A stretch of DNA of 64,000 nt from Giardia intestinalis (taxonomy: Eukaryota). Where the stretch lies: NCBI GenBank assembly GCA_000002435.2, contig CM018792.1. One strand, written 5' to 3'. Both the position numbers and the translations under genes were made by a program. Positions within the stretch are counted from its first letter, which is position 1; every line of letters starts with the position of its first letter. The notes under the pieces were generated by a model. That model was not told where the DNA came from, made no database searches, and saw only the letters and a list, made by a program, of their open reading frames with translations. Positions 40,302-63,997 of the stretch are shown here, one piece after another.

Positions 40302-42524
40302 TCACGCCTTGCCCCTACATATGAACCACCAGCAGAGGAAGCCCACGAGGCCCCCAACGACGACGATGACTGCGACGGAGATGCCCGCGATGGCCCCCGT
40401 GGAGAGCCCGCTCTTATTCGTGCTTCCGCCAGTATTGTCGCCGGTATTATCATCCGTTTCGAAACATATGAACTTGCCGTTAACAGGTGTCGCGCACTGC
40501 CTGCATCCAGCCAGCCCCTCGGAGCACTTTCTGCACGGCCCATTACTACTACTCTCCTTGTAATATCCAGGAGTACATACCTTGCATGTAGTAGCATCGG
40601 CTTCGCAGGTGTAGCAACTTTCGTGGCATTTCGTGCAGGCACTGCCGACCTTCACATATCCGTCCATGCACCTAGAACAGTCCCTAGTGGTGGTGCACTC
40701 AGCGCACCCAGTGTAGCAAGCCACAAGGCTCTCGCCTGTCAGGCTAAATCCTTCTTCCGGAGTCTTGCAGGTTCCGCCTGTACTCTGCGCACTCAAGCAC
40801 ACTGTCGACCCCGGAAGCTGGCTGGTGGAGTAGCAGCCGCCGTTCATCTTGAAGAAGCCGTCTGCGCAGACATTGCACACGCCACCAGTAATGCTTCCAT
40901 CTTTGCACTTATCTGTGCGACTGGTTTTAACAGCACAGACGCCGTTCTGGGGATACTCGTTGTTTTGACTACAGACAGAGCAGTATTTTGTCCCCTCAAC
41001 AGTCAGACCGCACTCCCTGCACTTGCCTGTGCCTGTGCCCGCCGCGCACTCGGCCCCACATGTGCCAGTGTTTCCTGTGGATCCGTAGGTGAGCGCGCTT
41101 CCAGACTTACAGCTTGTGCAATCATTGGCAGTATTTCCGCTACATGTCTTACAGCTGGAATCGCAAGGGGAGCACGCTTCGCCGTAGAAGCCGTCCTTAC
41201 AGAGACCGCACCCGCCATTTTCACTGCACGCGAGACAGTTGGCGACCTCGCACTTCTTGCAGACCCTCTTGTTGCCCTCTGTGCTACTGTAGTAGCCTAG
41301 AATATATTCGCAGTGGTCTATGCACTGGTTTGTTGGCGTCAGATACTTGTTGGACAGACATTCGGTGCAGATCTCTTTGTTTGTTTGTGCACCACTGCAT
41401 GCCTTACAATCCTGAGTACTGCATGGATTTGAAGGGGAATCATTTGGCACGCATTGTGTTTCTTCTTCGTCAAGTTTAAATCCATCATTGCACGTGCAAG
41501 TATTCTCGGTCTTGGCTTCTGAGTTATCAGGGCAGCTACTAATGCACGACTTCTTTCCGAGTCCAAATACCATATTTTCCTTACACGCTGTGCAGGTAAC
41601 GGAGGTGTCACTTTTGGTGCATGTTTTGCAGTTCTCAAACGTTCCTGCCGTGCACGGCTTGCACGTCTTCGGCTCCTCATCGTCGGCGTAGTGGGTGTTT
41701 CCACTCGTGCACGCTTCCTCAGTCACGCACTCGCCTGCCTGATCCTGTGACTGCGCCTTCTTTAGGTACGGCTTGTCCTCATTGCAAGAGGTGCACTTCG
41801 TAGCCTCGGTCTCACAGGTCTTGCATGTCTCAGCGCACTTGGTGCATTTTTTACTGCCTGTTGCATCGACGAAGAAGCCTGCAGTACTCGTGCACTCATG
41901 TTCCGTCACACACGACGTCACGTCGCCGTCCGTCTTAACAATCCTCGCGGTTTGCTGCGCATCAGGGCCGCACGCAGTACACTTAGCAACTCCACTGGCC
42001 TCTACCGTTAATTGTAATCCGTCACAGGCAGTGCACCCATCCACGCCCGTGTACTTCTTATTGCCAGTAAGCGTCACGCCTATCGAATCTCCGCACGAAA
42101 CAACCGAGTCGTGCGCATTATCAGCGCCCGGCGGTAGAAAGTATCCTTCCGTAGCCTGTGTGCACTTACCACCAGCTGCTCCTCCACACATCACATTGCC
42201 AGGCTCAATAGCTTGTTCGTAACACCCGCCCTTGTACATAAAAGTCTGACCAGCGCACTTTGCACAGGTCTCATCAGATGCAGTATTTCCATCGGCAGCT
42301 GTACATTTATCTGTTACATCATCTTTGCCTACACATTTTCCATTGATAGGAACAAATCCTGTGTTACATTGAGAGCAATACAATTTACCACCGATCAGAA
42401 CGTTGCATGCGTTTGCTGCACAATTGGCGTTATTCGCGCAGTGAGCTTCCCGCGCACGTTCTGCTACTTTTTCTGCCCATGCAATCTGGATGGCTAGGCC
42501 CGCGAATATAAAACTGCCGAACAT
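40302..42524 (-). CDS. vsp: Variant-specific surface protein (VSP), 740 aa, copy 1 of an identical pair.
   Basis: Signal peptide MFGSFIFAGLAIQIAWA. About 12% Cys with many CXXC motifs. C-terminal TM plus the invariant Giardia VSP tail GGLVGFLCWWFICRGKA. AGTAAAC polyA signal 7 nt after the stop (40288..40294 on the minus strand). Confidence 0.93.
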   Translation of the reverse strand: MFGSFIFAGLAIQIAWAEKVAERAREAHCANNANCAANACNVLIGGKLYCSQCNTGFVPINGKCVGKDDVTDKCTAADGNTASDETCAKCAGQTFMYKGGCYEQAIEPGNVMCGGAAGGKCTQATEGYFLPPGADNAHDSVVSCGDSIGVTLTGNKKYTGVDGCTACDGLQLTVEASGVAKCTACGPDAQQTARIVKTDGDVTSCVTEHECTSTAGFFVDATGSKKCTKCAETCKTCETEATKCTSCNEDKPYLKKAQSQDQAGECVTEEACTSGNTHYADDEEPKTCKPCTAGTFENCKTCTKSDTSVTCTACKENMVFGLGKKSCISSCPDNSEAKTENTCTCNDGFKLDEEETQCVPNDSPSNPCSTQDCKACSGAQTNKEICTECLSNKYLTPTNQCIDHCEYILGYYSSTEGNKRVCKKCEVANCLACSENGGCGLCKDGFYGEACSPCDSSCKTCSGNTANDCTSCKSGSALTYGSTGNTGTCGAECAAGTGTGKCRECGLTVEGTKYCSVCSQNNEYPQNGVCAVKTSRTDKCKDGSITGGVCNVCADGFFKMNGGCYSTSQLPGSTVCLSAQSTGGTCKTPEEGFSLTGESLVACYTGCAECTTTRDCSRCMDGYVKVGSACTKCHESCYTCEADATTCKVCTPGYYKESSSNGPCRKCSEGLAGCRQCATPVNGKFICFETDDNTGDNTGGSTNKSGLSTGAIAGISVAVIVVVGGLVGFLCWWFICRGKA

Positions 42525-45766: not shown

Positions 45767-47989
45767 ATGTTCGGCAGTTTTATATTCGCGGGCCTAGCCA
45801 TCCAGATTGCATGGGCAGAAAAAGTAGCAGAACGTGCGCGGGAAGCTCACTGCGCGAATAACGCCAATTGTGCAGCAAACGCATGCAACGTTCTGATCGG
45901 TGGTAAATTGTATTGCTCTCAATGTAACACAGGATTTGTTCCTATCAATGGAAAATGTGTAGGCAAAGATGATGTAACAGATAAATGTACAGCTGCCGAT
46001 GGAAATACTGCATCTGATGAGACCTGTGCAAAGTGCGCTGGTCAGACTTTTATGTACAAGGGCGGGTGTTACGAACAAGCTATTGAGCCTGGCAATGTGA
46101 TGTGTGGAGGAGCAGCTGGTGGTAAGTGCACACAGGCTACGGAAGGATACTTTCTACCGCCGGGCGCTGATAATGCGCACGACTCGGTTGTTTCGTGCGG
46201 AGATTCGATAGGCGTGACGCTTACTGGCAATAAGAAGTACACGGGCGTGGATGGGTGCACTGCCTGTGACGGATTACAATTAACGGTAGAGGCCAGTGGA
46301 GTTGCTAAGTGTACTGCGTGCGGCCCTGATGCGCAGCAAACCGCGAGGATTGTTAAGACGGACGGCGACGTGACGTCGTGTGTGACGGAACATGAGTGCA
46401 CGAGTACTGCAGGCTTCTTCGTCGATGCAACAGGCAGTAAAAAATGCACCAAGTGCGCTGAGACATGCAAGACCTGTGAGACCGAGGCTACGAAGTGCAC
46501 CTCTTGCAATGAGGACAAGCCGTACCTAAAGAAGGCGCAGTCACAGGATCAGGCAGGCGAGTGCGTGACTGAGGAAGCGTGCACGAGTGGAAACACCCAC
46601 TACGCCGACGATGAGGAGCCGAAGACGTGCAAGCCGTGCACGGCAGGAACGTTTGAGAACTGCAAAACATGCACCAAAAGTGACACCTCCGTTACCTGCA
46701 CAGCGTGTAAGGAAAATATGGTATTTGGACTCGGAAAGAAGTCGTGCATTAGTAGCTGCCCTGATAACTCAGAAGCCAAGACCGAGAATACTTGCACGTG
46801 CAATGATGGATTTAAACTTGACGAAGAAGAAACACAATGCGTGCCAAATGATTCCCCTTCAAATCCATGCAGTACTCAGGATTGTAAGGCATGCAGTGGT
46901 GCACAAACAAACAAAGAGATCTGCACCGAATGTCTGTCCAACAAGTATCTGACGCCAACAAACCAGTGCATAGACCACTGCGAATATATTCTAGGCTACT
47001 ACAGTAGCACAGAGGGCAACAAGAGGGTCTGCAAGAAGTGCGAGGTCGCCAACTGTCTCGCGTGCAGTGAAAATGGCGGGTGCGGTCTCTGTAAGGACGG
47101 CTTCTACGGCGAAGCGTGCTCCCCTTGCGATTCCAGCTGTAAGACATGTAGCGGAAATACTGCCAATGATTGCACAAGCTGTAAGTCTGGAAGCGCGCTC
47201 ACCTACGGATCCACAGGAAACACTGGCACATGTGGGGCCGAGTGCGCGGCGGGCACAGGCACAGGCAAGTGCAGGGAGTGCGGTCTGACTGTTGAGGGGA
47301 CAAAATACTGCTCTGTCTGTAGTCAAAACAACGAGTATCCCCAGAACGGCGTCTGTGCTGTTAAAACCAGTCGCACAGATAAGTGCAAAGATGGAAGCAT
47401 TACTGGTGGCGTGTGCAATGTCTGCGCAGACGGCTTCTTCAAGATGAACGGCGGCTGCTACTCCACCAGCCAGCTTCCGGGGTCGACAGTGTGCTTGAGT
47501 GCGCAGAGTACAGGCGGAACCTGCAAGACTCCGGAAGAAGGATTTAGCCTGACAGGCGAGAGCCTTGTGGCTTGCTACACTGGGTGCGCTGAGTGCACCA
47601 CCACTAGGGACTGTTCTAGGTGCATGGACGGATATGTGAAGGTCGGCAGTGCCTGCACGAAATGCCACGAAAGTTGCTACACCTGCGAAGCCGATGCTAC
47701 TACATGCAAGGTATGTACTCCTGGATATTACAAGGAGAGTAGTAGTAATGGGCCGTGCAGAAAGTGCTCCGAGGGGCTGGCTGGATGCAGGCAGTGCGCG
47801 ACACCTGTTAACGGCAAGTTCATATGTTTCGAAACGGATGATAATACCGGCGACAATACTGGCGGAAGCACGAATAAGAGCGGGCTCTCCACGGGGGCCA
47901 TCGCGGGCATCTCCGTCGCAGTCATCGTCGTCGTTGGGGGCCTCGTGGGCTTCCTCTGCTGGTGGTTCATATGTAGGGGCAAGGCGTGA
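45767..47989 (+). CDS. vsp: Variant-specific surface protein (VSP), 740 aa, copy 2. Identical to 40302..42524 and head-to-head with it.
   Basis: Identical 740-aa translation ending ...FLCWWFICRGKA. AGTAAAC polyA signal at 47997..48003. Confidence 0.93.
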   Translation: MFGSFIFAGLAIQIAWAEKVAERAREAHCANNANCAANACNVLIGGKLYCSQCNTGFVPINGKCVGKDDVTDKCTAADGNTASDETCAKCAGQTFMYKGGCYEQAIEPGNVMCGGAAGGKCTQATEGYFLPPGADNAHDSVVSCGDSIGVTLTGNKKYTGVDGCTACDGLQLTVEASGVAKCTACGPDAQQTARIVKTDGDVTSCVTEHECTSTAGFFVDATGSKKCTKCAETCKTCETEATKCTSCNEDKPYLKKAQSQDQAGECVTEEACTSGNTHYADDEEPKTCKPCTAGTFENCKTCTKSDTSVTCTACKENMVFGLGKKSCISSCPDNSEAKTENTCTCNDGFKLDEEETQCVPNDSPSNPCSTQDCKACSGAQTNKEICTECLSNKYLTPTNQCIDHCEYILGYYSSTEGNKRVCKKCEVANCLACSENGGCGLCKDGFYGEACSPCDSSCKTCSGNTANDCTSCKSGSALTYGSTGNTGTCGAECAAGTGTGKCRECGLTVEGTKYCSVCSQNNEYPQNGVCAVKTSRTDKCKDGSITGGVCNVCADGFFKMNGGCYSTSQLPGSTVCLSAQSTGGTCKTPEEGFSLTGESLVACYTGCAECTTTRDCSRCMDGYVKVGSACTKCHESCYTCEADATTCKVCTPGYYKESSSNGPCRKCSEGLAGCRQCATPVNGKFICFETDDNTGDNTGGSTNKSGLSTGAIAGISVAVIVVVGGLVGFLCWWFICRGKA

Positions 47990-52591: not shown

Positions 52592-52953
52592 ACGAGATGA
52601 CAAGAAAGTATCCGGTGAGCTTCGGGCCATCCCGAGGTTCATGGCGTATGCAATCTTCGTCATAGAGTACCAAGGCCCTAGGCTACGTGGCCAAGATCAC
52701 TGCTTTCCACTCCATACAGAAGTTGGCCCCAAGGGGGCTGAGTGAGAGAAAGGAGAAGCCCAGACGGTGTCGCAAGAGCAAGGTCACGACGCTCAGAGCG
52801 AGGAGGCGCGACACCCCTCCCCTCCCCAGAATCGGGCGGCCTCCAGGCTCTCGGGGTCAACCGCGCAGGGCGGGGGAGAGGCCCCAGCGGGCCTGCTCGG
52901 GCAGCGGGTGGCAAGCAAATTCTACAAAGATTTACTTCTAAGAACGTAAAGGA

Positions 52954-55900
52954 TTAGATCTTGTATTCTTGACATCCCAATATGATTCCTTCTTCAGCTG
53001 CCTGTCTTACATCGTCTGCCTTTCCAAAAACAACAGTTTGACCAGAGATAACGGCTTCAAATGAAACAGCAGCACTCTTAAGGTCATTAATGGTCATGCG
53101 ACGAATTTGGCCAACAGCTCTTCTGTAATCGTTAACACTGTTGCCTTCTAACCAGTAGTCAACGGCCTGGGTAAAGCGAACTAACGGGGCCAAATCCATT
53201 TGGCGCTTACCGACGGCGCCTATTTTGAAGAAAAGAAGCTCTTCAGCAGTTAAGGTAAGGCGGTCGATATATTCTTTAATCTCATCAAACACCTTCTTTG
53301 TTTCTACCAATTGAGGATCTAAGTATGTTGTTAGATAGGACCAGCGTGATCTGGATAAAATAAAGAAGCAGCCACAAGCTCCATTTTCTATTCGTATCTT
53401 TTTTGCAAGATAATCGTAAGTGATGATATGCAAAAGCAATAATTCCGCACCAGTCAGCTCTGTCAACGGAAGCCGGCCACTTCGAGCAACATAATTAACG
53501 TTGACGGGAGCCGCCACAGAGAGCATCCTATGCTGTATGTCTTGTTCCATTTTGAGGAAGCGCTGAGAGTCCTTTTCTGGGGGGCACAAGTCCTTCTTAT
53601 GCAACTTGACCGGGGTAGTTAGAAAGTGCGCGGCATGTTCAGTTATTGGGAATATGTCTGGCTTCATATTCCACTTGTTTATATCGTAAGTATGTGTTGA
53701 GTATTTGTCGTGTATAATAGCTTGAAGCTTTTGAACTATTAGCAGCCCATTAATAATTTTATCTACCACGGCTTGCGTATTGCTGGTGATAATGCGCTTA
53801 TTCATGAAGGGTTCAAGTTCAGGGACATTTAAGCCAATACAAACAGCAATCGATGTGTGCCTTTGCAGAAGCCTTGCATACATGTTCTTCAGCTTCCTTG
53901 ACATAACAATAGCTATCTTCAAATCATCATCGGTCAATGTGTATACATTATGCTTGATGCATTCCTCATCAAAATCAAGTCCGTTGGCGGAGGAAATTTC
54001 GGAGTCAGCCGGGGGCTCCAGCAAAGTCTTCTTCAGGTATTCCAGATAATTGATCCCATTAACATACTCATCATAGATGGCCCCGATACTCCCAGATAGT
54101 GCCATGGCACGCGTGTAAGCGATGTAGTAGCCCATTTTCTGTAAGAAGTGGCTCTCCATTTGCTCCTTATGGCTGTGAAGTATCTTGAATACTAGCTCCA
54201 GATTGCCCAATCCAACCATTGACTTTTGCCAGATTTCGCTGAGTATAAGGTGAAGGGCCTGATCCGTTTTGCTTTCTAAGAATGAAGCATCTATCCTTAT
54301 ATAGGCACGTGGGTATGTTTCTGACGCATTCAGTGTGTGTACGGTTGAATAACGATACTCCATAGAGACGCGGAACTTTCCTAGGACATTGCTAATTGCT
54401 AGCTGCAGCTGCTCCGGAGATTCATAGTTCTCTGTACTGACATTTCCGAGCATCGCACCTGCTAAGAAAGAGATCAAAGGCGCCTCTTCAAAGGTCACCA
54501 GTTCAGAGACGTCAATAAACATACTAAAGTGAACAATTCCATTTCCCAGACTTCCTGTATTATACACGTTTATGGGGACATCATTAAGGTGAACTCCTGG
54601 GCTATTGTGTTTGGAAAGCGATCGAGAAAATATGCGTAGCTGCAAGTAGTCATCTTCAAGAGAGACTAGGTCTGCTTCCGAGACCTGAGGAAACTCCCTG
54701 AGCACCTTCTCGTCGACTTCATTAGAGCGATTGAGTACAGCCAGTGTTTGTGCAACTAAGCCGTTTATCTCCTTCTCTGACATCATACTCTTTTTGTCCT
54801 GGAGCTCTCTTTGCTTGGCTTCTGCTATGTCCTCAGCAAGACCTGGTGTTGGGGTCAAAATAGCATCCTTCCAGGCTTTGTTGTCAATGTAGTATCTTCT
54901 AAGGAGTTCGCGCATATATACACTTATGGTACCCTCTGCTATTTTCTCTCGTAACTCTAGGAATGCCCCTTCAAACAGTAACTCTTCTTCTGGGGTCACA
55001 TTGTAGAACCAAGAGCCGAAAAGTGAGGTCAGAACCTTGACGCCATAGTTAGTCTGATGCTCACGAAGCTCAAACTCAAGTCTGTCCATCTCTGACGAGA
55101 TTCGGGTTGGAGAAAGATAAAACATATAGTCGGAAAGCGGATCCTGCTCTGTTCGCGTACTATTCTCATTCTCCAAAAGAAGGAAGACACGATCAAGCTC
55201 TCTGCGCAGACGACTAGTGGAATCTTCATCATATTCGCACCCGTGAAGACAAATATATGTGTATCCTTGGCAGTTAGTATCATCAGTCTCCACAGATAGT
55301 TCTGAAATAAGGCCCAACTTCTGTAGATGAGCAAGGACAGGAGAGGAAGTGGCACCAAATAAAATTCCAGAAAGGGTGTCAAGCGCTAAGCGCTCTGTTC
55401 GCGTGACTTCGTTAATGTTGAAAGTACGCCACATACGTACCAAATAGCCTTGTCGAAAGCCTACTTGAGATTCCTTTGCGATAGGGTAAGAGAGGCGCAA
55501 TGGTTCTATGCACGCGTTGATGGGTAAAGCGCCTGCTAAAATAGGGGCCTTTTTAACAATGTAAGGAGCCAGCTCTTCGCTGCTCATAGATTCTAGAGGC
55601 TGCAGATATCTATCATATATCAGTGAGAGCTCCTTCTCTAATGGGAGAGTAGAATGGTAGGCTATACGACCGTTTGCCATGGTATAGTGAGTGCTGTGGT
55701 ACTCGACAAGATCATCCGGCTCTAAGGTGACGATGTGATCAGGGTGTCCAATAGATGTATACATGAGACTGCCTCCATCGAATAGAGCCTGCTTAAGAGC
55801 GTGCACAGCGATGTGGATGGGCTCTGAGAAGGCCACTGTTAGCTCATTAAGGATGGCGCCTCGCAGCTCCAGCTCTGACGTATTGCTCATAAGGTGCATG

Positions 55901-56355
55901 GACCACGCTTCCTGGTGAAAGACTCGCTTGTCGTGAAGGAGTGCAGGACAGAACACCGCGTCGAGATAGATGGCCATTATATTCAGATAGTCCTTTTCAC
56001 AACGCGACGCAAAGGGATAAAGAGTAAATGTGTCGTAGGTTCCAGCGTTAAGGTACGTTTTAAGAGATCCTTGTAACAGCTGGCCAAATGGATCTGGAAG
56101 AGGATAACGGTCGGAACCACAAAGAACAGAACGGCTGAGAATGTGCGGAAGGCCTGTATCAGAGGTTGGAGGAGTGCAAAAGCCAATCGAAGCACTGAAT
56201 TCCGGGTAACTTGCCTGAAGCGGGGTCAATTTGATCGCTCGAAAACCAGTAAGCTTGTGCTCTAGTTCGATCAAGGAGCAATCTATCTCTGGTATCTGTT
56301 CAACCGTGCGAACGACGGTGAAGCCCGAAATGACACTTCCTATTGGCGGAGGCAT
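52954..56355 (-). CDS. M16C-family (presequence protease/falcilysin-like) metallopeptidase homologue with a degenerate zinc motif (HILSR in place of HxxEH). Probably a pseudo-protease.
   Basis: The N-terminal block LIELEHKLTGFRAIKL...FCTPPTSDTGLPHILSRSVLCGSDRYPLPDPFGQLLQGSLKTYLNAGTYDTFTLYPFASRCEKDYLNIMAIYLDAVFCPALL...FHQEAW is collinear with PreP/Cym1 (HILEHSVLCGS.KYPV.DPF..LLKGSL.TFLNA.TY.D.T.YP.AS.N.KDF.NL..VYLDAVF.P). Length 1133 aa is typical of M16C. The stop codon is 38 bp from the palindrome boundary. Confidence 0.65.
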   Translation of the reverse strand: MPPPIGSVISGFTVVRTVEQIPEIDCSLIELEHKLTGFRAIKLTPLQASYPEFSASIGFCTPPTSDTGLPHILSRSVLCGSDRYPLPDPFGQLLQGSLKTYLNAGTYDTFTLYPFASRCEKDYLNIMAIYLDAVFCPALLHDKRVFHQEAWSMHLMSNTSELELRGAILNELTVAFSEPIHIAVHALKQALFDGGSLMYTSIGHPDHIVTLEPDDLVEYHSTHYTMANGRIAYHSTLPLEKELSLIYDRYLQPLESMSSEELAPYIVKKAPILAGALPINACIEPLRLSYPIAKESQVGFRQGYLVRMWRTFNINEVTRTERLALDTLSGILFGATSSPVLAHLQKLGLISELSVETDDTNCQGYTYICLHGCEYDEDSTSRLRRELDRVFLLLENENSTRTEQDPLSDYMFYLSPTRISSEMDRLEFELREHQTNYGVKVLTSLFGSWFYNVTPEEELLFEGAFLELREKIAEGTISVYMRELLRRYYIDNKAWKDAILTPTPGLAEDIAEAKQRELQDKKSMMSEKEINGLVAQTLAVLNRSNEVDEKVLREFPQVSEADLVSLEDDYLQLRIFSRSLSKHNSPGVHLNDVPINVYNTGSLGNGIVHFSMFIDVSELVTFEEAPLISFLAGAMLGNVSTENYESPEQLQLAISNVLGKFRVSMEYRYSTVHTLNASETYPRAYIRIDASFLESKTDQALHLILSEIWQKSMVGLGNLELVFKILHSHKEQMESHFLQKMGYYIAYTRAMALSGSIGAIYDEYVNGINYLEYLKKTLLEPPADSEISSANGLDFDEECIKHNVYTLTDDDLKIAIVMSRKLKNMYARLLQRHTSIAVCIGLNVPELEPFMNKRIITSNTQAVVDKIINGLLIVQKLQAIIHDKYSTHTYDINKWNMKPDIFPITEHAAHFLTTPVKLHKKDLCPPEKDSQRFLKMEQDIQHRMLSVAAPVNVNYVARSGRLPLTELTGAELLLLHIITYDYLAKKIRIENGACGCFFILSRSRWSYLTTYLDPQLVETKKVFDEIKEYIDRLTLTAEELLFFKIGAVGKRQMDLAPLVRFTQAVDYWLEGNSVNDYRRAVGQIRRMTINDLKSAAVSFEAVISGQTVVFGKADDVRQAAEEGIILGCQEYKI

Positions 56356-56503
56356 CTCTCACTTTTTATAAATTAAAAATATCGCGTCTTGTGGCGTTCT
56401 TTGCAGCTTGGTTGCCCCGGACTTTGAGGGAGTCACCAACAAAGAGACCGCAAGCATCAGCCAGCGTACCACGGGGAATACTTAAGAGTTTAAGATTTCA
56501 ACC

Positions 56504-59500
56504 ATGGCATCCTTAGCCACATCCCAGTTTATATTTCATGATGACACAATAGACATCCTTGTGGGCAACAGGGTTGTTAACAATGTGCAGCTTACAAACT
56601 CTTGCATCTTGGCGCTGCACAGAATAGGAAGATTTGATGTGCCTCAAGTCTTTGCCGTCTATATCAGTAGTGAAGAGCCAGGCCTTCATTCTATCCTTTT
56701 CCGTCTGTCGACGATTAAGGATGTTGCCACACTTGTCCCGCTGATGCGTATTGATATTAGCTCCATAATGTCAAATTGTCCGGGATTGACTGTGTCCCAC
56801 CTTTTTCCAGAGCATACTAAGATTCTTTTGTACCTTCGAGAAGAGCACATTTGCATCCAGTTTTCTCCGTCTTGTATCATTTACGCAAACATGCGACTTT
56901 CGCACCGTGTGGATACTGGCGGTGTGTACCGCTTTGTGCTTCCTTCGACTGCCTCATGCATGCTGAACATACCGAATCCAGAACACATTACATCCATGGA
57001 TGCTAACGAGTACCTGTACGCATGTGTAGGAAATGCGCTTTTACGGACCAAGACTCCTATAAATCTTCACATACTAAGCAGGCGACAGACGCCAATGATG
57101 TTTAAGAGGGTTGCAACACTATCCACTTCTGGAGAGTATGTTTGTCTCAATTGTAGTATACTTTCTGACTCTACCCTTTCCGAAATCGACACTCACAGAC
57201 CGGGTTACAAGCATGCTCCTACATTGTTAAAAAGGCCCATAGATATTGCTCCTTTATCACAAAAGTTTTCTCAGCAACTTCAGTCTGCTTACCCTCCTCT
57301 TCCGTCTACCTTGTTGACTCACAAGTGGCAAAAAGAGATCTCTACTGCATCTCATCTCTCTACTAACAGTACCACTTTTATTAAGCACTATATCATGAAT
57401 ATCTCGGGTAGTAGTCAGACTCCTGTGTTTCTCATCGGAACTCTGGTTCATGACACAACAGGGTGTTTCTCTTTCTTCTCAATTAATATCTACACACTCT
57501 CTCAGGTGCCAATGAGCGACTGGAAACGGTACACAAAAAATGAGATGACTTCTGCATCTATGTTTAGACTGTGCAAGACAGTTGGAAGAATCAATTTGGA
57601 TGAGCTGTGTACGTACAGGTTTCCTCTTGCCACGGAAACGGAAATGAAGCCTCAGCAACTAGGCGGTCCGTCGTTGTGTCATACTAAGACATACTTAGAT
57701 AACTTCACCATCTCTCCATTGCGAGCTATCAACAATTCTTTCTTTTTCTCTATGAGCTTCATGGCCCGATATACCGATACAGACGCATTCCGTTTTTTCT
57801 ATGCTTTCCAGGTTAACTGCGAATCTGCAAACATCCGCCTGGTGATGAAGCAGATCTACTTGTCTGTGCCTCGAGCCCCCGACTGCAATGAGTTTGCACT
57901 TACTGAGCAAACGATTATCAATAACACAATTGCAGGGGTACATCTGGTCTCCTTTATATCGGATAAATCGGAGAATCTCCTATACATTCACGATAACACA
58001 AAGGTGTACTTCCTTATGATGTTTAACGAGAAAATCAAGTTTGTGTCCGGTAGGGATCTCACCCTCTTCATCTATTCGTATGCAAATAACGAGCGCGATG
58101 TCTTTAATATTTACAACTTAGAGCTTTCTGAGAATTGTGCATCCCTTCCGGCGGATGGCTTAGAGGCGCAGGAACATGGAGGACTGTTTGAGGCTGTAAG
58201 CTATAAGTATGTGTCTAAATATAGTGTCGGGCTGGCTGCTACATTCTTGCGCCTGGTTGGCTTTGGAAAGAATCTGATGATGATACAAGGGATTGCAGGA
58301 GCTGCTATGCCTTATGGAAACAAGACCGACAAATTAGATGGAGAACTAATTAAGATAACTATATTTTCTGAAAAAGACGGGAACTATTTGTCTTCCTTCA
58401 AGTACTTAGTCCTTCCACACACATCTCGTGACTCTTCTGAAGCGTCTCTAAAGCACGCACTATTTACTAGCTTTGAGAGGTATGGGCAGCTATACATTGC
58501 TTTCTGCACTGAGTATGCTGCCGACAACAGAGTTCAAATGACCGGTGACACGCTCAAGGTGGATAGTCTTGCACGAATAGCTTCCACAGCATCGATCACT
58601 AGAACATCCTCTATCACGACCATAGGGTCAGACCACTCCACTGAGTCTCTCCTTACTATACCGTCCGATCTTTCCGACGCGTCTGTGAAAACATCCTCTG
58701 GCTTAAAGAACCCGGAGCCTCTTCCTGGCTTCCCGTGCCCGAACATAGATACCCATTTGGATCAGCACACTCGGAGCACATTCATGATTCGAGACTTTAA
58801 CTTGCTGACCATTGTGTTTACTATGTCTGGAAGATATCTTTACTCCACAGGTTTCCAAGACTTAGAATACGATGCTCTTCCTTCGACGGAGAAGGTTACA
58901 AGTGATCCGTCTGATGACCCTCAAACGAGTTTCTTTTCTAGCGGGGTGACACAATTTCGCTGTCTATTGCGCAGATCAAATTTAATTCCTCATCGTTTGT
59001 TCTATGTTCTTCCAAATGACTGCTTGCGATTATCTTTTATTACCCCATATGAGCTGCGTGCCCCACTGCAGCGCCACAAGATACATGTAGAGCGCTTCTT
59101 TTTGCCATTTCTTTCAATTGCCACATGCTTCCTTTCCTCTGCGCCAAGCATTCTCAGAACATACACTGCTCACCTGCACACAACGCTTTTTAGGCGCTTT
59201 ATTACAAATGTGCTGACATCCAGCCACTACCTCTTCAACATTACTCTCCGGGACAAGCTGGAACCAGATACTATCATGAAGTACGCCTTCTTCAACCTTT
59301 ACGATGTTTCTGTTTCGATAAGTGAGTTCACCTCTATTTTACTCTTATCTACTTCTCAACATTATGACTATGACTCTCATCTTACAAATTACATCGTAAC
59401 AAAATTATTGATGTCTAAGGATCTTCCAAGAGATAGACTTCTCCCTTACCTAGTCACCGGCGTTCTCTGCTTAACAAAGCAGCTTGGGCCAAAAGGCTCA

Positions 59501-62500
59501 GATAGTATATCTCAGGATCTGGCGTATGATCTGCCCAATTGGTTGGAAACCTACCTTTCTGCTGATCATGTCGCTGTTGATTATACATTGCTGGCTGCCC
59601 ACTCTGGGTCTGTGCCTCGTATTTTCTTACCGGAAGCACATGCTTTCAAAACAGGCCTGCTCAGAGTTCTCCCGTCTGTCTATCTTAGGGGACTCTTTAT
59701 CGCCATTGGTGACACAGAGTACCGCTTATCAAAAGTGCCGAATTCAGTGGTCACCTTCTACTATGTAATAACCAATCGACTTGTTGTACTTGCAAACCTT
59801 TATCTGCGTGCACAGAATACCAAAGTAGCCACTTTCCTTAAATCCCACACGTACAACGGAGAAGACAGCGCGAGATCGTTTGAGGTCGCCAGGAAAAACG
59901 CATTTGTATTACTGACGAAGTGCGATTATTATATGGCAGCAGCATGGTTCGTCTTGGCGGCCGATTTTGAACACATGGTTACTGTTCTTGTTGATAAGCG
60001 CTACATGGCCAACATAGATCTTGGGCTGGCAGTTTTCAGGTATCTGCGAGACACCATGTCTGATTCACTTGTTAAACTGACCCAACTATCTTCGACATTC
60101 GTCATCACACCTGATCATCTTACATCGATGGAAAGAGTTCTTTTTAACTCCACAATCAAGGAGTATGTTGTCACAGAAGATACAGAGGACACTGGGAGCC
60201 TATCTCCGCAAAAGCATACAGTTATCAATCTGGAAAAGTCTGAGATATCAAGGTTGTCGTACAAGATGTCATCAAGCAGAATTCACAAAAACATCACTGA
60301 TTTTACCTCTCACTGTATGGCAGCATACGATATAATCTACTATTACTTTGTTCTAAGTCAATACGAAGACAGCAGCGAATTTCTTGCTGCAGTTATTACA
60401 GATGTTGTTGCTGCGATCATCTCGTTTACGCAGCACACAACTCTAGAAAATGGTACACCAGCGGATATGCACGAGGCTATCTCTGTGGTACTGCATGTAC
60501 TTCACAACTTCATATTCCTTTGCGTCCATTACAAAATGACAAACGAGATCCGGAGCATCTTGAACGCACTATATCGACTTTACTCATGTAACATGTTTGG
60601 GCCCATTGAGAAGTTGCGAATTCTTAATCTGTCCATGTATATTCTTGCTCTAAGCAGGCGCACATTTGCTGCAGTGGAGGGTCTAGGATCGTTCCTCCTA
60701 CTTTCAGATGTCAAGGTCTCTCAGAGGCAGCTCTTTAACGCGTTTGAGCTCTCTTTCGTGTCACTGATCCACTTACACTCTAACACACTTTCAACGTCTC
60801 TGCTCTACAATGCGTTTCTTTATTTTCTAAACCCTAGCCGATATCTTGGCAGCAGCTACACATCTCGAATGAAGAAGCTAAGAGAGCAATGCGACATTGC
60901 AGCAGAAAAAGAGATAGCAGCCACCGGGAAGGATGAGTCTTCAGACAGTCAATCTGACCGCTTCAGACGCATACTATCTACGTTTGTGTTTTACCTTTGC
61001 TTGGGATTCTTCACTGGAGATGGGAAGAGAGCTGCTAACCTCATGTGGGAGAAATATCAGTCTGAGGTAGCAGAGCATATTTTGTTCACTCAATTGAAGC
61101 GACGCCCAAGCAGATTTGACATAGAAAATGCCCACCTAAAAGAGGAAAGAGTTATCAGACGCCGTCGCCTCTGTGCGGCAAGTGTGCCTGACGGCTATAT
61201 TGATGACAATATCGAGCTTGATAATGACAACGACGAGAGTGACAGCAATAACAGTAGCTATAGCTATAGCGATGACGAAAGCTGTCATGAGCCTATAGAA
61301 GCAGACAGTGAGGAAGAGGTTATGATCAAGGAAAAGAGTCATGATAAAACTAGGGTCCATTTGAAGAATCGCCGCTGCCGGCTGCAGACACCAGAAGAGA
61401 TTCAGCACCTGTGCAGAATTGTCCATGCGTATTTCAAAACTATCTTTGGTTTCACACAGTCTCCTCGTATCATAGATCATACTACTCAGATTCTAAACTC
61501 GTTTGAAGCAACTATTCTTCCTGTCGTCAACACCACTATTACAGCAGCTACGTCTAAGGAGATACACGATATGACCGACTCCTTACTTAACTTGATTTCA
61601 ACCCTTTCAACAGGGGACGAGGCGTCTAAGCAGCTCTTGAATTCAGTGCACTCTGAGGCGCGCGTGTTGCAAAGCGAGTCTGAATATCAATCTATGGCGA
61701 CATCGGATAGAGATAGCACGTCTATTATCCAGCAGTTGTTATTTAAGCGTCGTGAAAACCCCACCTCGGCTAGCTCGGATAGAGAGCTGCTTAAACAGCC
61801 AAAGCACAGAGAGAAGCGTGTGATAACGATCTCGGATATGGAGATGCATACGACCATGCTTTCAGATGCTATGAATGGTCCGTACGATACTCCAGGAGAA
61901 GATGACTATGATAGAACTGCGCGTACACCTTTTGCAAAGCATCCTGTTTTACGCCGCAGTCTTGGGTTTGTAATTGTAACAAAGAATAACACATTAATGA
62001 TTGAACAATATGATACCCTACTAGAATTCTATTCATATCTAACACTGACCCCGGGCGGCTACACAAGGTATGTGCCAGCAGCCTTTAATTCTGCACTGGC
62101 TGCAACAGCCCATTCTATCTCATTGTCGCGTAAAGAGGCCTCGACTATGGGCTTTGAAATGCTCTCTGTTTTCCTTACTCACGGGAGCAATAGCTTGTCA
62201 CATCTTGTGCGACATGGCTTGTCAGCAACTAAACGTGTAGAGCCGATGAACTTTGATTGCTTCCTTGCAACGCATGCTCAGAATTCGATTTCGGACGTTC
62301 GGATCTCCAATCTTTTTTACATTTTAATTGCACTACATGAATACACAATTAACAATGGGAGCATGCTTCTTTTTAGAAACACCATGCAGAGCAAGTATGG
62401 ATTGCAGATTCACCTCAATCAACTTATGGAGAAGACAAGTAACTGCCCGTACAAGGATATCCTTCCTGCCTACCATGCCATCTTTAAAGAGATCCAGCGC

Positions 62501-63997
62501 AATGCACTCACCACGGATGAGGTCTCCTATCTGGAAATACTTGAGCACGCAGGCACCACCTTTGTGGAAAGATTACTGATAGCTAAGAAGCTCATTCTAT
62601 TAGAGATTTACTATATTATCAGTAGGTACAAGACGGTTCCTACGAAAGAATCGCGCATCCATCATATGAGAGCAGCGCAGGACTCCGGTGGTGGGGCGCT
62701 AATCCCATCAACCCTGATAACCTTCCTCAAGAACCCGTTTGTATGTTTCCTAAACGGGCTTCTCAACCATATCTTCTACTCTCCGCGGTTGGCACTGAAT
62801 GCTACACCAATTAGTGTGTTGCATAAGACACAGATTTCAGGAAGTCTTGCTGAGGACTTACTGCCCGTTTTAAAGGACACCCTCTTTTGGCAAACATACA
62901 TAGCAAAAGATTGGAAGACAAGTTATGCGGCCAGCGAGCGGTTCTTTGACAGCAGACTTCTAAGATACTGCATTTTTCTCTCTAAGTACATCCTTCTTTA
63001 CTTGTACCCCTCCTCTATCCTTGTGTTCTCCATCGTGCAGAATAACAATCCATCAAGCACTACCACAGTGGACGGGACAATGGTGTCTATAGATACCTTC
63101 GAGGAGTATGGTGCAACAGATGAAAGCGACAGCGGAACCTCTCTCGATGGGAGCTCTGATGTTCCACCAAGATTGGCACGACGAGGTCGCTTAAAGAGCC
63201 GGGGACGGAAGGATCATCAGACTAGGCGTATGTATGACCTCAGATTAGTGCTTGAATACACGAATGTTACTTCGTTTATCCAAACGTCTAAAAACACTTT
63301 CTATCTCCTTGTCAAGTCAAACTATATCATAGGTGTCACGTTACATAAGGACGGCGACGAGGTTGCAACTGTTTCAGCACCTATTTCCACAAACTTCGAC
63401 TCGGAGAAGCTGATAGGTGGATTAGATACCATTAATGACTTAGGGGTTTTGTTTAGCAAATCTATGTACTCTGTGTTCTGCAAAGATGGTATCGTGGTTC
63501 CAGCAGTTCAAAATCGCAACATTAAGTTTGGCCTGACAGATGCATCGTTATCATTGAAAACTGCCACTATTCATGATATGGCACTATTCACCAACTTCCA
63601 GGCGTTGGCGCTAGTCTCCTATCTTGAGCATGGCTCTTCCGACAACACTCCACCCAAGCTAATTCTCGCCACGGTCAACCTTCTTAATTGCTCCATCATC
63701 GACGGCATTGAACTTGAAGAGGCATACGTCCATATTGTCTTGACTAAAGTGCGCGACATTCAAATTCTTCTGCTTTTTGGCGCGAAAGAGTACTGCATTC
63801 TGTGCAAGCATGTGGCAGGAGCAACAGACACTTATATCAAGGCGGAAGGTGGCCTTCTTCCTGAGGACGTGGGATCAGCACTGGTTCTTGCTGAGGCGCT
63901 TTGTGAGGGAAGCCGGGTCATCTACAGGCTTGTCTACGCCGTGGGACGGGGTGCCGTGAAGACCCACGTCATCACATATCATGTGAACGTTGTCTGA
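56504..63997 (+). CDS. Giant hypothetical protein, 2497 aa, Leu-rich helical with an acidic Ser/Tyr/Asp low-complexity insert.
   Basis: Single 7.5-kb ORF with its stop at 63995-63997. No P-loop or other catalytic motif seen. Acidic stretch DDNIELDNDNDESDSNNSSYSYSDDESCHEPIEADSEEE. Confidence 0.55.
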   Translation: MASLATSQFIFHDDTIDILVGNRVVNNVQLTNSCILALHRIGRFDVPQVFAVYISSEEPGLHSILFRLSTIKDVATLVPLMRIDISSIMSNCPGLTVSHLFPEHTKILLYLREEHICIQFSPSCIIYANMRLSHRVDTGGVYRFVLPSTASCMLNIPNPEHITSMDANEYLYACVGNALLRTKTPINLHILSRRQTPMMFKRVATLSTSGEYVCLNCSILSDSTLSEIDTHRPGYKHAPTLLKRPIDIAPLSQKFSQQLQSAYPPLPSTLLTHKWQKEISTASHLSTNSTTFIKHYIMNISGSSQTPVFLIGTLVHDTTGCFSFFSINIYTLSQVPMSDWKRYTKNEMTSASMFRLCKTVGRINLDELCTYRFPLATETEMKPQQLGGPSLCHTKTYLDNFTISPLRAINNSFFFSMSFMARYTDTDAFRFFYAFQVNCESANIRLVMKQIYLSVPRAPDCNEFALTEQTIINNTIAGVHLVSFISDKSENLLYIHDNTKVYFLMMFNEKIKFVSGRDLTLFIYSYANNERDVFNIYNLELSENCASLPADGLEAQEHGGLFEAVSYKYVSKYSVGLAATFLRLVGFGKNLMMIQGIAGAAMPYGNKTDKLDGELIKITIFSEKDGNYLSSFKYLVLPHTSRDSSEASLKHALFTSFERYGQLYIAFCTEYAADNRVQMTGDTLKVDSLARIASTASITRTSSITTIGSDHSTESLLTIPSDLSDASVKTSSGLKNPEPLPGFPCPNIDTHLDQHTRSTFMIRDFNLLTIVFTMSGRYLYSTGFQDLEYDALPSTEKVTSDPSDDPQTSFFSSGVTQFRCLLRRSNLIPHRLFYVLPNDCLRLSFITPYELRAPLQRHKIHVERFFLPFLSIATCFLSSAPSILRTYTAHLHTTLFRRFITNVLTSSHYLFNITLRDKLEPDTIMKYAFFNLYDVSVSISEFTSILLLSTSQHYDYDSHLTNYIVTKLLMSKDLPRDRLLPYLVTGVLCLTKQLGPKGSDSISQDLAYDLPNWLETYLSADHVAVDYTLLAAHSGSVPRIFLPEAHAFKTGLLRVLPSVYLRGLFIAIGDTEYRLSKVPNSVVTFYYVITNRLVVLANLYLRAQNTKVATFLKSHTYNGEDSARSFEVARKNAFVLLTKCDYYMAAAWFVLAADFEHMVTVLVDKRYMANIDLGLAVFRYLRDTMSDSLVKLTQLSSTFVITPDHLTSMERVLFNSTIKEYVVTEDTEDTGSLSPQKHTVINLEKSEISRLSYKMSSSRIHKNITDFTSHCMAAYDIIYYYFVLSQYEDSSEFLAAVITDVVAAIISFTQHTTLENGTPADMHEAISVVLHVLHNFIFLCVHYKMTNEIRSILNALYRLYSCNMFGPIEKLRILNLSMYILALSRRTFAAVEGLGSFLLLSDVKVSQRQLFNAFELSFVSLIHLHSNTLSTSLLYNAFLYFLNPSRYLGSSYTSRMKKLREQCDIAAEKEIAATGKDESSDSQSDRFRRILSTFVFYLCLGFFTGDGKRAANLMWEKYQSEVAEHILFTQLKRRPSRFDIENAHLKEERVIRRRRLCAASVPDGYIDDNIELDNDNDESDSNNSSYSYSDDESCHEPIEADSEEEVMIKEKSHDKTRVHLKNRRCRLQTPEEIQHLCRIVHAYFKTIFGFTQSPRIIDHTTQILNSFEATILPVVNTTITAATSKEIHDMTDSLLNLISTLSTGDEASKQLLNSVHSEARVLQSESEYQSMATSDRDSTSIIQQLLFKRRENPTSASSDRELLKQPKHREKRVITISDMEMHTTMLSDAMNGPYDTPGEDDYDRTARTPFAKHPVLRRSLGFVIVTKNNTLMIEQYDTLLEFYSYLTLTPGGYTRYVPAAFNSALAATAHSISLSRKEASTMGFEMLSVFLTHGSNSLSHLVRHGLSATKRVEPMNFDCFLATHAQNSISDVRISNLFYILIALHEYTINNGSMLLFRNTMQSKYGLQIHLNQLMEKTSNCPYKDILPAYHAIFKEIQRNALTTDEVSYLEILEHAGTTFVERLLIAKKLILLEIYYIISRYKTVPTKESRIHHMRAAQDSGGGALIPSTLITFLKNPFVCFLNGLLNHIFYSPRLALNATPISVLHKTQISGSLAEDLLPVLKDTLFWQTYIAKDWKTSYAASERFFDSRLLRYCIFLSKYILLYLYPSSILVFSIVQNNNPSSTTTVDGTMVSIDTFEEYGATDESDSGTSLDGSSDVPPRLARRGRLKSRGRKDHQTRRMYDLRLVLEYTNVTSFIQTSKNTFYLLVKSNYIIGVTLHKDGDEVATVSAPISTNFDSEKLIGGLDTINDLGVLFSKSMYSVFCKDGIVVPAVQNRNIKFGLTDASLSLKTATIHDMALFTNFQALALVSYLEHGSSDNTPPKLILATVNLLNCSIIDGIELEEAYVHIVLTKVRDIQILLLFGAKEYCILCKHVAGATDTYIKAEGGLLPEDVGSALVLAEALCEGSRVIYRLVYAVGRGAVKTHVITYHVNVV

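Follow-up and report, generated by a model that had tools for sequence, protein, structure and literature searches.

Giardia intestinalis carries a gene annotated as a metalloprotease in which the zinc motif of its family appears degenerate, and the question is whether the product is still a protease and, if not, what it is kept for. The analysis was based on a window of 64,000 nucleotides (assembly GCA_000002435.2, contig CM018792.1), where the gene lies on the minus strand with an ATG start and a TAA stop (Table 1). No longer frame is possible, as the ORF already begins at the first start codon past the upstream stop. The protein was 100% identical to XP_001704875/A8BTG2, "Metalloprotease, insulinase family", and the gene ID GL50803_93551 was assigned via the 1133 aa length and a 3402-nt minus-strand gene. 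Searches of PDB with phmmer matched it to AtPreP (2fge, E=5e-58), human PreP (4l3t, E=6e-48) and falcilysin (E=2e-20), and the Pfam domains M16C_assoc and PreP_C exceeded their gathering cut-offs. By full-length homology the protein is a member of peptidase family M16, subfamily M16C, in agreement with the first-pass annotation, which had described it as a collinear homologue of PreP and falcilysin. No match was obtained in it to Pfam PF00675, the active M16 N-terminal domain. This absence is not diagnostic, because the domain is also unlisted for the intact orthologue of G. muris.

Table 1. Features of GL50803_93551 and its flanks, in positions of the window
Feature	Position	Strand	Basis or remark
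Putative polyadenylation signal, AGTAAAT	52930..52936	-	starts 18 nt past the stop codon
Coding sequence, M16C PreP-like pseudopeptidase	52954..56355	-	1133 aa + stop
PreP C-terminal domain, residues 949-1109	53029..53511	-	Pfam PF22516, E=1.1e-12
Degenerate R/Y pair, domain 4: R988 kept, Tyr to C994 (R-I-E-N-G-A-C)	53374..53394	-	aligned to R848...Y854 of AtPreP
M16C-associated hinge and domain 3 region, residues 500-776	54028..54858	-	Pfam PF08367, E=3.7e-17
Peptidase_M16_C domain, residues 211-371	55243..55725	-	Pfam PF05193, E=1.3e-7
N170-E171-L172, distal zinc-ligand Glu kept, flanking Met to Leu	55840..55848	-	aligned to N-E177-M of AtPreP
L102-N-A-G-T106, kept xLNAxT substrate-binding edge strand	56038..56052	-	alignment
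Degenerate zinc motif H71-I-L-S74-R75 in place of HxxEH	56131..56145	-	aligned to HILQH/HILEH of AtPreP and hPreP
AT-rich tract ATATTTTTAATTTATAAAAA, putative core promoter/initiator	56363..56382	-	ends 7 nt upstream of the ATG

Alignment to M16C enzymes placed HILSR (residues 71-75) exactly on the HxxEH columns, with G-L-P-H-I-L-S-R-S-V-L-C-G-S falling column for column on G-I-P-H-I-L-Q-H of the E80Q crystal mutant (2fge) and on G-V-P-H-I-L-E-H. The general-base Glu is replaced by Ser74 (AGC, 56134-56136; Ala in assemblage B) and the second His by Arg75 (CGT, 56131-56133), substitutions that had been proposed from the sequence and that the alignments to 2fge and 4l3t bear out. His71 (56143-56145) and the distal Glu171 are kept. 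One of the three zinc ligands is lost together with the catalytic Glu, and the headline of the first-pass annotation, that both zinc ligands had gone, holds for the second His only. The downstream Glu ligand, which had been singled out for checking, is present and invariant: E171 (G-A-I-L-N-E-L) aligns with AtPreP E177 (G-V-V-F-N-E-M; hPreP equivalent E205), the residue numbers of the PreP sites having been checked by counting along the 2fge alignment. Its neighbours V167, V168, M172 and G174 have changed in this lineage, M172L being specific to the G. duodenalis complex. An intact zinc motif elsewhere in the protein had been named as the alternative, and a motif search of the whole protein found no second HxxEH or HExxH.

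Another loss, missed in the first-pass annotation, affects the R/Y pair. Its Tyr was found in 178 homologues, whereas Cys was confined to 14 pattern-matched GL50803_93551 sequences of the G. duodenalis complex. With His71, Glu171 and Arg988 kept, metal binding or weak activity is formally possible. PreP activity is abolished by mutating either residue of the R/Y pair, and HxxEH is likewise needed (PMC12731061); the change to Cys994 therefore strengthens the case for inactivity. Judged from its residues, GL50803_93551 is almost certainly not a protease.

Comparison of orthologues confined the HILSR-type loss to the G. duodenalis complex, and all 177 other full-length homologues examined keep HxxEH. 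The comparison included two extra G. duodenalis-like lineages, a G. muris-like species and the outgroup P0007; ERR3333380, ERR3333382, SRR17450160, SRR30592944 and SRR14944320 were the sequencing runs among the sequences compared. A sequencing or assembly artefact was ruled out as the source of the motif, as HIL[S/A]R recurs in 18 sequences of independently assembled origin. E74, H75, Y994, M172 and G202 were specifically lost in the G. duodenalis complex, and H71, E171 and R988 were kept. The syntenic orthologue in G. muris carries an intact HIVEH, its orthology being backed by a conserved head-to-head Rav1p_C neighbour. The suggested check of other Giardia assemblages thus showed the substitutions across the G. 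duodenalis complex but not Giardia-wide.

A second Giardia M16C paralogue, GL50803_9508 ("Metalloendopeptidase", 1172 aa, chr2), is 30% identical to GL50803_93551. It has the same architecture with every catalytic residue intact, and its HITEH, NEM and R/Y pair are preserved in all lineages; M16C activity has therefore not been lost from the cell. G. muris also has both paralogues, and a diplomonad-specific duplication was evident from the tree. The ancestral diplomonad M16C gene was duplicated before G. muris and G. duodenalis split, and three catalytic residues of one copy were replaced on the stem of the G. duodenalis complex, namely Glu by Ser or Ala, His by Arg and the transition-state Tyr by Cys. 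The catalytic loss is recent, with an intact second copy remaining. On the G. duodenalis stem GL50803_93551 showed 139 unique changes versus 75 (p=1e-5), with 35 versus 9 in the N-terminal domain, an asymmetry that is pronounced only against P0007, the closest outgroup, and weakens when distant outgroups are used. The same relative-rate test gave 133 versus 104 (p=0.06) for the control paralogue.

Since the catalytic loss GL50803_93551 has been under strong purifying selection, the new Arg75 included. Among four lineages of the G. duodenalis complex, dN was 0.08-0.13 and dS >1.1, corresponding to an approximate dN/dS of about 0.04-0.09 with dS near saturation. Across the duodenalis-muris split synonymous sites were saturated (dS undefined), so that no branch-specific omega is available for the stem on which the loss occurred. 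The Arg75 codon varies between CGT, CGG and CGC while Arg stays, and synonymous codon turnover has left Arg75, Leu172, Glu171, His71 and Arg988 all unchanged. The protein is also more conserved than its intact paralogue, both between assemblages A and E (91.6 vs 89.0% identity) and between G. duodenalis and G. muris (45 vs 38.5%). Together with detection of the protein, the low dN/dS upholds the earlier view that the full-length ORF has been kept and not pseudogenised.

The fold was predicted with AF2 (AlphaFold), as had been suggested, and the model (pLDDT 88, pTM 0.87) superposes on closed PreP. The best Foldseek matches were closed AtPreP (TM 0.87), partially closed hPreP (0.89) and falcilysin, with TM ranges of 0.84-0.89 for PreP and 0.78-0.82 for falcilysin over about 1130-1220 alignment columns. 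The model shows a complete four-domain clamshell in its closed state, with a long helical hinge. This is the architecture of PreP (Arabidopsis AtPreP1/2, human PITRM1, yeast Cym1) and Plasmodium falcilysin (MEROPS M16C), which are single chains of about 1000-1100 aa. GL50803_93551 is collinear with these enzymes. The LNAxT strand is conserved in it, as are the first His of the motif, the distal Glu and the R/Y Arg; it differs from them in three replaced residues, which are the R/Y Tyr and, in the zinc motif, the general base and the second His.

In published proteomics, normalised spectral counts of GL50803_93551 were 0.05/0.92/0.13/0.25 at 0/4/8/12 h of encystation, in a table whose peptide-count columns are seemingly ordered by replicate, although its header says by time. 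The transient 18-fold rise at 4 h (p=2.8e-5) comes from one study, the 4-h sample of which shows broad transient shifts in many proteins. In a second proteomic time course, detection of the protein was limited to the points labelled 2, 4 and 10. GL50803_9508, in contrast, was flat during encystation. The mRNA of GL50803_93551 was abundant (logCPM 8.1-8.5).

GL50803_93551 is a clean natural "dead enzyme" and not a new kind of system, and it is best read as a selectively maintained pseudopeptidase. As for its function, N103, A104 and T106 of the xLNAxT strand, the role of which in M16 has been described (PMC9291397), were invariant among 60 homologues. This strand, Arg988 and the chamber are conserved and the chemistry is gone; peptide capture without cleavage is therefore the most likely role. 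We accordingly favour, with good but not full confidence, a catalytically dead but functional M16C "peptidasome" paralogue, which, as far as can be inferred from its conserved residues, has probably kept peptide binding but no longer cuts. The chamber would take up polypeptide tails or unstructured peptides and leave them uncleaved, and Arg75 may occupy the former zinc site through a putative pairing with Glu171. In the cytosol such a protein could serve as a peptide holdase or buffer, as an antagonist of the active paralogue, or as an adaptor.

The behaviour proposed here would resemble that of the trap mutants AtPreP E80Q (2fge) and hPreP E107Q (4l3t, 4nge), which hold peptides uncut with the general base gone and the chamber intact. 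The title of entry 4nge names a complex with amyloid-beta. In the trap mutants, unlike in GL50803_93551, the Tyr and the full set of zinc ligands are still present, and the binding mode may therefore differ. A more specific and rather speculative version, in our view improbable as a whole, is a natural "substrate-trap" of the G. duodenalis complex: a dead PreP-like cage would sequester specific peptides or unfolded termini, be switched on for a few hours at the onset of encystation, perhaps antagonise or complement GL50803_9508, and help to control the trophozoite-to-cyst switch. If true, this would be a lineage-specific innovation of the human-infecting species complex, as G. muris lacks the change. 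The early transient peak in encystation makes GL50803_93551 a testable candidate regulator of differentiation. A literature search found no interaction or phenotype data for it.

A maintained pseudoenzyme might instead have a role unrelated to peptide capture and act through surfaces outside the chamber, serving as a module for protein-protein interactions or as the scaffold of, for example, an encystation-stage complex. Pseudopeptidases commonly work through protein-protein interactions (PMC11266112), the protein peak is sharply stage-specific, and the C-terminal half contains insertions of the Giardia lineage (about residues 780-935) that bacterial and plant PreP lack. Yet this insertion region is the least conserved part of the protein (dN 0.205, 46% of positions invariant), and constraint is strongest in residues 1-194 and 989-1088, the regions holding the former active-site residues, and on the substrate strand. 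We regard the scaffold role as unlikely, and retain peptide capture as the preferred function.

The constraint on the N-terminal domain, still the most constrained part of the protein, could also be expected of a peptidase with a modified centre, in which His71 and Glu171 bind the metal and another residue is the base. His71, Glu171 and Arg988 are kept under selection, and bovine core I, which has a modified motif, shows low activity (PMC12731061). Against this, the Glu-to-Gln change alone served to trap substrates in PreP crystals (HILQH, 2fge and 4l3t), and position 74 offers no conserved substitute base, being Ala in one assemblage and Ser in some others. The R/Y Tyr is gone as well, and C79 and G995, family-invariant neighbours of the site, are polymorphic within assemblage A. 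Residual peptidase activity of this kind is very unlikely.

The first-pass annotation had hoped for a link to the mitosome, in which a dead organellar peptidasome would handle cleaved presequences, and PreP homologues are typically organellar. GL50803_93551 begins at the conserved fold, like bacterial homologues, and lacks the organellar targeting extension of PreP, the plant protein having about 85 extra N-terminal residues. Some Giardia mitosomal proteins lack cleavable presequences, and the missing extension is therefore not decisive. The protein is, however, predicted to be cytosolic in a proteomics table, it is absent from the mitosome protein table of PMC7985675, which includes the processing peptidase GPP (GL50803_9478), and a cytosolic interpretation has been given for other M16C-like proteins of metamonads (PMC11316075). 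A literature search found no localisation experiment for GL50803_93551. GPP, the single-subunit beta-MPP of the mitosome, is likewise an M16-family protein of Giardia, but it is a two-domain, active M16B enzyme, experimentally mitosomal (PMC7985675) and not closely related. A mitosomal function is highly improbable on this evidence, and GL50803_93551 probably does not bear on mitosome import. A decaying relic whose ORF survived by chance is scarcely credible: in its favour are the missing catalytic residues and the variation within assemblage A at some family-invariant positions close to the site, but the idea is effectively refuted by an intact 1130-1133-aa ORF in at least five divergent lineages (dS >1, dN about 0.1), by conservation above that of the active paralogue, and by abundant mRNA and a detected, regulated protein.

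Inactive M16 proteins kept for substrate recognition or structural roles are known from M16B, namely alpha-MPP and the cytochrome bc1 core proteins. A review of pseudopeptidases tabulates MPP as the M16 pseudopeptidase and mentions the bc1 core proteins in its text; the degenerate motif of alpha-MPP is HxxDR, with the same second-His-to-Arg swap as in GL50803_93551 (PMC11266112). These M16B proteins are two-domain subunits and obligate partners of an active subunit, with a glycine-rich loop and without the R/Y pair, whereas GL50803_93551 is an inactive four-domain enzyme in its entirety, made of one chain and with no known partner. An M16C protein of this kind, dead and standing alone, would extend the M16 list of that review. 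It also offers a well-dated pseudoenzyme case: the G. muris orthologue is intact, as is the paralogue that shares the cell with it, a burst of changes in the catalytic domain gave way to strong constraint, and selection acts on Arg75, which replaced a metal ligand by the swap seen in alpha-MPP.

GL50803_93551 bears the annotation metalloprotease and has been placed under "exopeptidase activity" or "peptidase activity" in papers on proteomics and transcriptomics. The functional enrichments that count it as a protease need correction, as do any drug-target lists that do so.

The intergenic region upstream of GL50803_93551 totals just 148 bp, and no Myb2-type encystation promoter elements (CWACAG, GTTTGK) were found in it. 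Judging by Giardia promoters in general, the AT-rich tract in front of the gene is a likely Giardia-type core promoter/initiator. The AGTAAAT downstream fits AGTRAAY, the Giardia polyadenylation consensus.

GL50803_93551 occupies one ORF, 1133 codons long and without interruption, and is followed by an AGTAAAT element that fits the Giardia polyadenylation consensus. Its product is 100% identical to the ‘Metalloprotease, insulinase family’ protein of Giardia duodenalis WB (XP_001704875, A8BTG2), and the identifier was assigned because length and strand match the published proteomics table (1133 aa, 3402-nt gene, minus strand; 1172 aa for the paralogue GL50803_9508). The Pfam domains M16C_assoc, PreP_C and Peptidase_M16_C were each detected above the gathering cut-off, and phmmer against PDB sequences recovered Arabidopsis PreP (5e-58), human PreP (6e-48) and falcilysin (2e-20), in line with the homology proposed in the first-pass annotation. 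An AlphaFold2 model built from a 60-sequence alignment was confident (pLDDT 88, pTM 0.87), and its top Foldseek matches, closed AtPreP (TM 0.87), partially closed human PreP (0.89) and falcilysin, spanned all four domains, with IDE far lower. Taken together, these results identify a complete M16C clamshell. The protein is full-length and well folded but lacks three residues required for catalysis.

In HMMER alignments, G-L-P-H-I-L-S-R-S-V-L-C-G-S of GL50803_93551 was placed on G-I-P-H-I-L-Q-H of the AtPreP crystal mutant (2fge); the human PreP motif in the same register is HILEH. AtPreP residues were counted along the 2fge chain in the alignment, and these numbers presumably agree with the published numbering. 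The replacement of the general-base Glu and the second His by S74 and R75, read earlier from the sequence, was thereby confirmed, and the downstream Glu ligand was located at E171. The accompanying description of both zinc ligands as lost is imprecise: it holds for the second His, but the losses comprise one of three zinc ligands, the general base and the R/Y Tyr, with H71 and E171 kept. No other HxxEH or HExxH was found in the whole protein, leaving no intact zinc motif elsewhere. According to a 2025 review (PMC12731061), HxxEH and the distal Glu bind zinc and activate water, and the active site is completed by the R/Y pair; activity is abolished when either residue of the pair is mutated, and the role proposed for its Tyr is transition-state stabilisation. 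GL50803_93551 retains an unaltered xLNAxT edge strand (L102-N-A-G-T106), the substrate-docking element of M16 enzymes (PMC9291397); across 60 homologues, N103, A104 and T106 do not vary.

Positions of the features of GL50803_93551, its neighbours and the compared loci
Feature	Position	Strand	AtPreP equivalent	State or source
GL50803_93551 ORF	window 52954-56355	(-)		
AT-rich tract	ends 7 nt upstream of ATG	(-)		sequence
AGTAAAT element	starts 18 nt past TAA stop	(-)		sequence
First zinc-ligand His	H71		H77	kept
General-base Glu	S74 (Ala, assemblage B)		E80 (Q80 in 2fge crystal mutant)	lost
Second zinc-ligand His	R75		H81	lost
Distal zinc-ligand Glu	E171 (N-E-L)		E177 (N-E-M)	kept
Arg of domain-4 R/Y pair	R988		R848	kept
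Tyr of domain-4 R/Y pair	C994		Y854	lost
Lineage-specific changed positions	E74, H75, G150, V167, V168, M172, G174			from 128-position set
Lineage-specific changed positions (rest)	G202, P226, L558, Y609, V989, Y994, S1010			from 128-position set
VSP gene	window 40302-42524	(-)		
VSP gene	window 45767-47989	(+)		
Rav1p_C gene	window 56504-63997	(+)		
Intact orthologue, locus L006	7001-10408			run SRR14944320
Intact orthologue, locus L005	5001-8306			run SRR30592944
Compared interval, locus L001	6403-7258			
Compared interval, locus L002	8394-9300			
Compared interval, locus L003	8403-8664			
Compared interval, loci L004/L005	8300-13300			

The loss of the catalytic residues arose on the G. duodenalis stem. 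Among full-length homologues from two database searches, HxxEH was kept in 177 and missing in 18, all of them G. duodenalis-complex orthologues from assemblages A (WB, DH), E (P15) and B (GS) and two further lineages (78-79% identical to WB); the assemblages carry HILSR or, in B, HILAR. The G. muris gene (44% identical) encodes HIVEH, N-E-M and G-A-Y-G, and is regarded as the orthologue because its position is conserved: a head-to-head neighbour of ~2200-2500 aa adjoins the M16C gene in every Giardia locus, with a Rav1p_C domain detected at four of six loci, including the window and G. muris. Catalytic residues are also intact in P0006, the protein of a G. muris-like species, and in P0007, that of a more distant relative. 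The organisms behind loci L005 and L006 are one G. muris-like, with an orthologue 80% identical to that of G. muris, and one more distant and diplomonad-like (31% identical), with different neighbours including NifU and prenyltransferase.

An intact M16C paralogue is present in the same cell. In GL50803_9508, encoded on chr2 and 30% identical to GL50803_93551, no catalytic residue has been lost in any assemblage or in the G. muris protein (P0157). Both Giardia clades and P0007 formed one group in a neighbour-joining tree (100% bootstrap), with P0007 on the GL50803_93551 side (88% support). The tree therefore indicates a duplication older than the G. muris/G. duodenalis split and a later presumed inactivation, in one copy only.

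GL50803_93551 is under strong purifying selection. Across four G. duodenalis-complex lineages, dN was 0.08-0.13 and dS 1.1-3, giving a dN/dS of ~0.04-0.085 that is approximate because dS is near saturation; dN is still an order of magnitude lower. Constraint was strongest in residues 1-194 and 989-1088, which harbour former active-site residues. Synonymous turnover was found at the retained residues His71 (CAC/CAT), Arg75 (CGT/CGG/CGC), Glu171 (GAG/GAA), Leu172 (CTA/TTA/CTG) and Arg988 (CGA/CGG/AGA), and position 74 drifts between Ser and Ala. The turnover at Arg75 indicates that the replacement Arg itself is under selection. These data, with an expressed protein, bear out the earlier argument against pseudogenisation. 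The copy without the catalytic residues is more conserved than the intact one, both between assemblages A and E (91.6% vs 89.0% identity) and between G. duodenalis and G. muris (45% vs 38.5%).

Tajima relative-rate tests with the closest outgroup revealed an excess of change on the G. duodenalis branch of GL50803_93551 (139 vs 75, p=1e-5; N-terminal domain, 35 vs 9), which weakens with distant outgroups; the control paralogue gave 133 vs 104 (p=0.06; N-terminal domain, 29 vs 21). Among 128 positions with conservation of 90% or more across non-Giardia homologues, those that differ in every G. duodenalis-complex sequence and are kept in G. muris and P0007 clustered at the catalytic centre; V167, G174 and V989 are also changed in GL50803_9508. 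The pattern is that of a burst of change around the active site, after which the new state has been strongly constrained. Two family-invariant positions are polymorphic within assemblage A (C79Y and G995S; proteins P0121 and P0133, isolate DH type). Residue 79 is the Cys of S-V-L-C-G-S and 995 the last Gly of G-A-Y-G, both adjoining former catalytic residues.

Judging from these residues, GL50803_93551 is very likely catalytically inactive, since Glu-to-Gln alone is the substrate-trap mutation of 2fge and of human PreP 4l3t, and since R/Y mutants are inactive. With its docking strand, Arg988 and chamber all conserved, the protein may plausibly still bind peptides. It is suggested that Arg75 may take the place of zinc by pairing with Glu171, given the selection on this Arg and the parallel HxxDR motif of alpha-MPP. 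Inactive M16 proteins, such as alpha-MPP and the bc1 core proteins, are already well known; a pseudopeptidase review tabulates MPP as the M16 case and mentions the core proteins in its text. GL50803_93551 is grouped under peptidase activity in the literature, and our literature search found no paper noting that it lacks catalytic residues. MEROPS or similar automated resources may already list the protein among non-peptidase homologues. The finding can improve annotation and offers a case study in evolution, with modest general interest.

The protein starts 4-5 residues ahead of the first conserved strand, as in bacterial homologues, whereas plant PreP has about 85 extra N-terminal residues. 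Some mitosomal proteins lack presequences, so the missing extension is no proof against a mitosomal location. GL50803_93551 is predicted to be cytosolic in the published proteomics table and does not appear in a published compilation of Giardia mitosomal proteins, in which the processing peptidase GL50803_9478 is present. In other metamonads, M16C-like proteins were interpreted as cytosolic (PMC11316075). Of the organellar or cytosolic roles first envisaged, the mitosomal one thus found nothing in its favour.

GL50803_93551 is expressed, with a peak in early encystation. In the encystation proteome of Faso et al., mean normalised spectral counts were 0.051, 0.924, 0.127 and 0.255 at 0, 4, 8 and 12 h (4 h/0 h ratio 18.1, p=2.8e-5; 4-8 h fall, p=6.7e-5), a peak from one proteomic study in which many proteins shift transiently at 4 h; GL50803_9508 was flat (0.36-0.47). 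The peptide counts (2/2/0, 29/27/29, 2/5/3, 6/5/8) were taken as replicate-ordered, the sole order consistent with the spectral-count columns, although the table header implies time order. The ‘mean TniP’ values in this row of Supplementary Table S2 (PMC3877021) follow the header order, hence their mismatch with the spectral counts. According to the same paper, the protein was detected in a second time course only at time points labelled 2, 4 and 10, and a transcript rise at about 3 h has been reported as well. In host-cell co-culture RNA-seq, logCPM was 8.1-8.5, vs 8.9 for GL50803_9508.

The product of the head-to-head neighbour in the window is 2497 aa long and has a weak Rav1p_C (RAVE complex) domain; this gene is divergently transcribed from GL50803_93551, with a 148-bp intergenic region between them. 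On the downstream side, Nop14, ornithine decarboxylase and dynein heavy chain genes are found in G. muris and a related species; in the window this side leads into a GC-rich variant-specific surface protein (VSP) region, and in three other G. duodenalis-complex assemblies the contigs end 0.3-0.9 kb past the M16C gene. These differing genes and nearby contig ends suggest that synteny is broken here and that the region is repetitive or variable. The two VSP genes encode 100% identical proteins of 740 aa and form a head-to-head inverted duplication, about 3.2 kb apart, within a block at about 36-52 kb with a GC content of 0.55-0.61, vs about 0.44 elsewhere.
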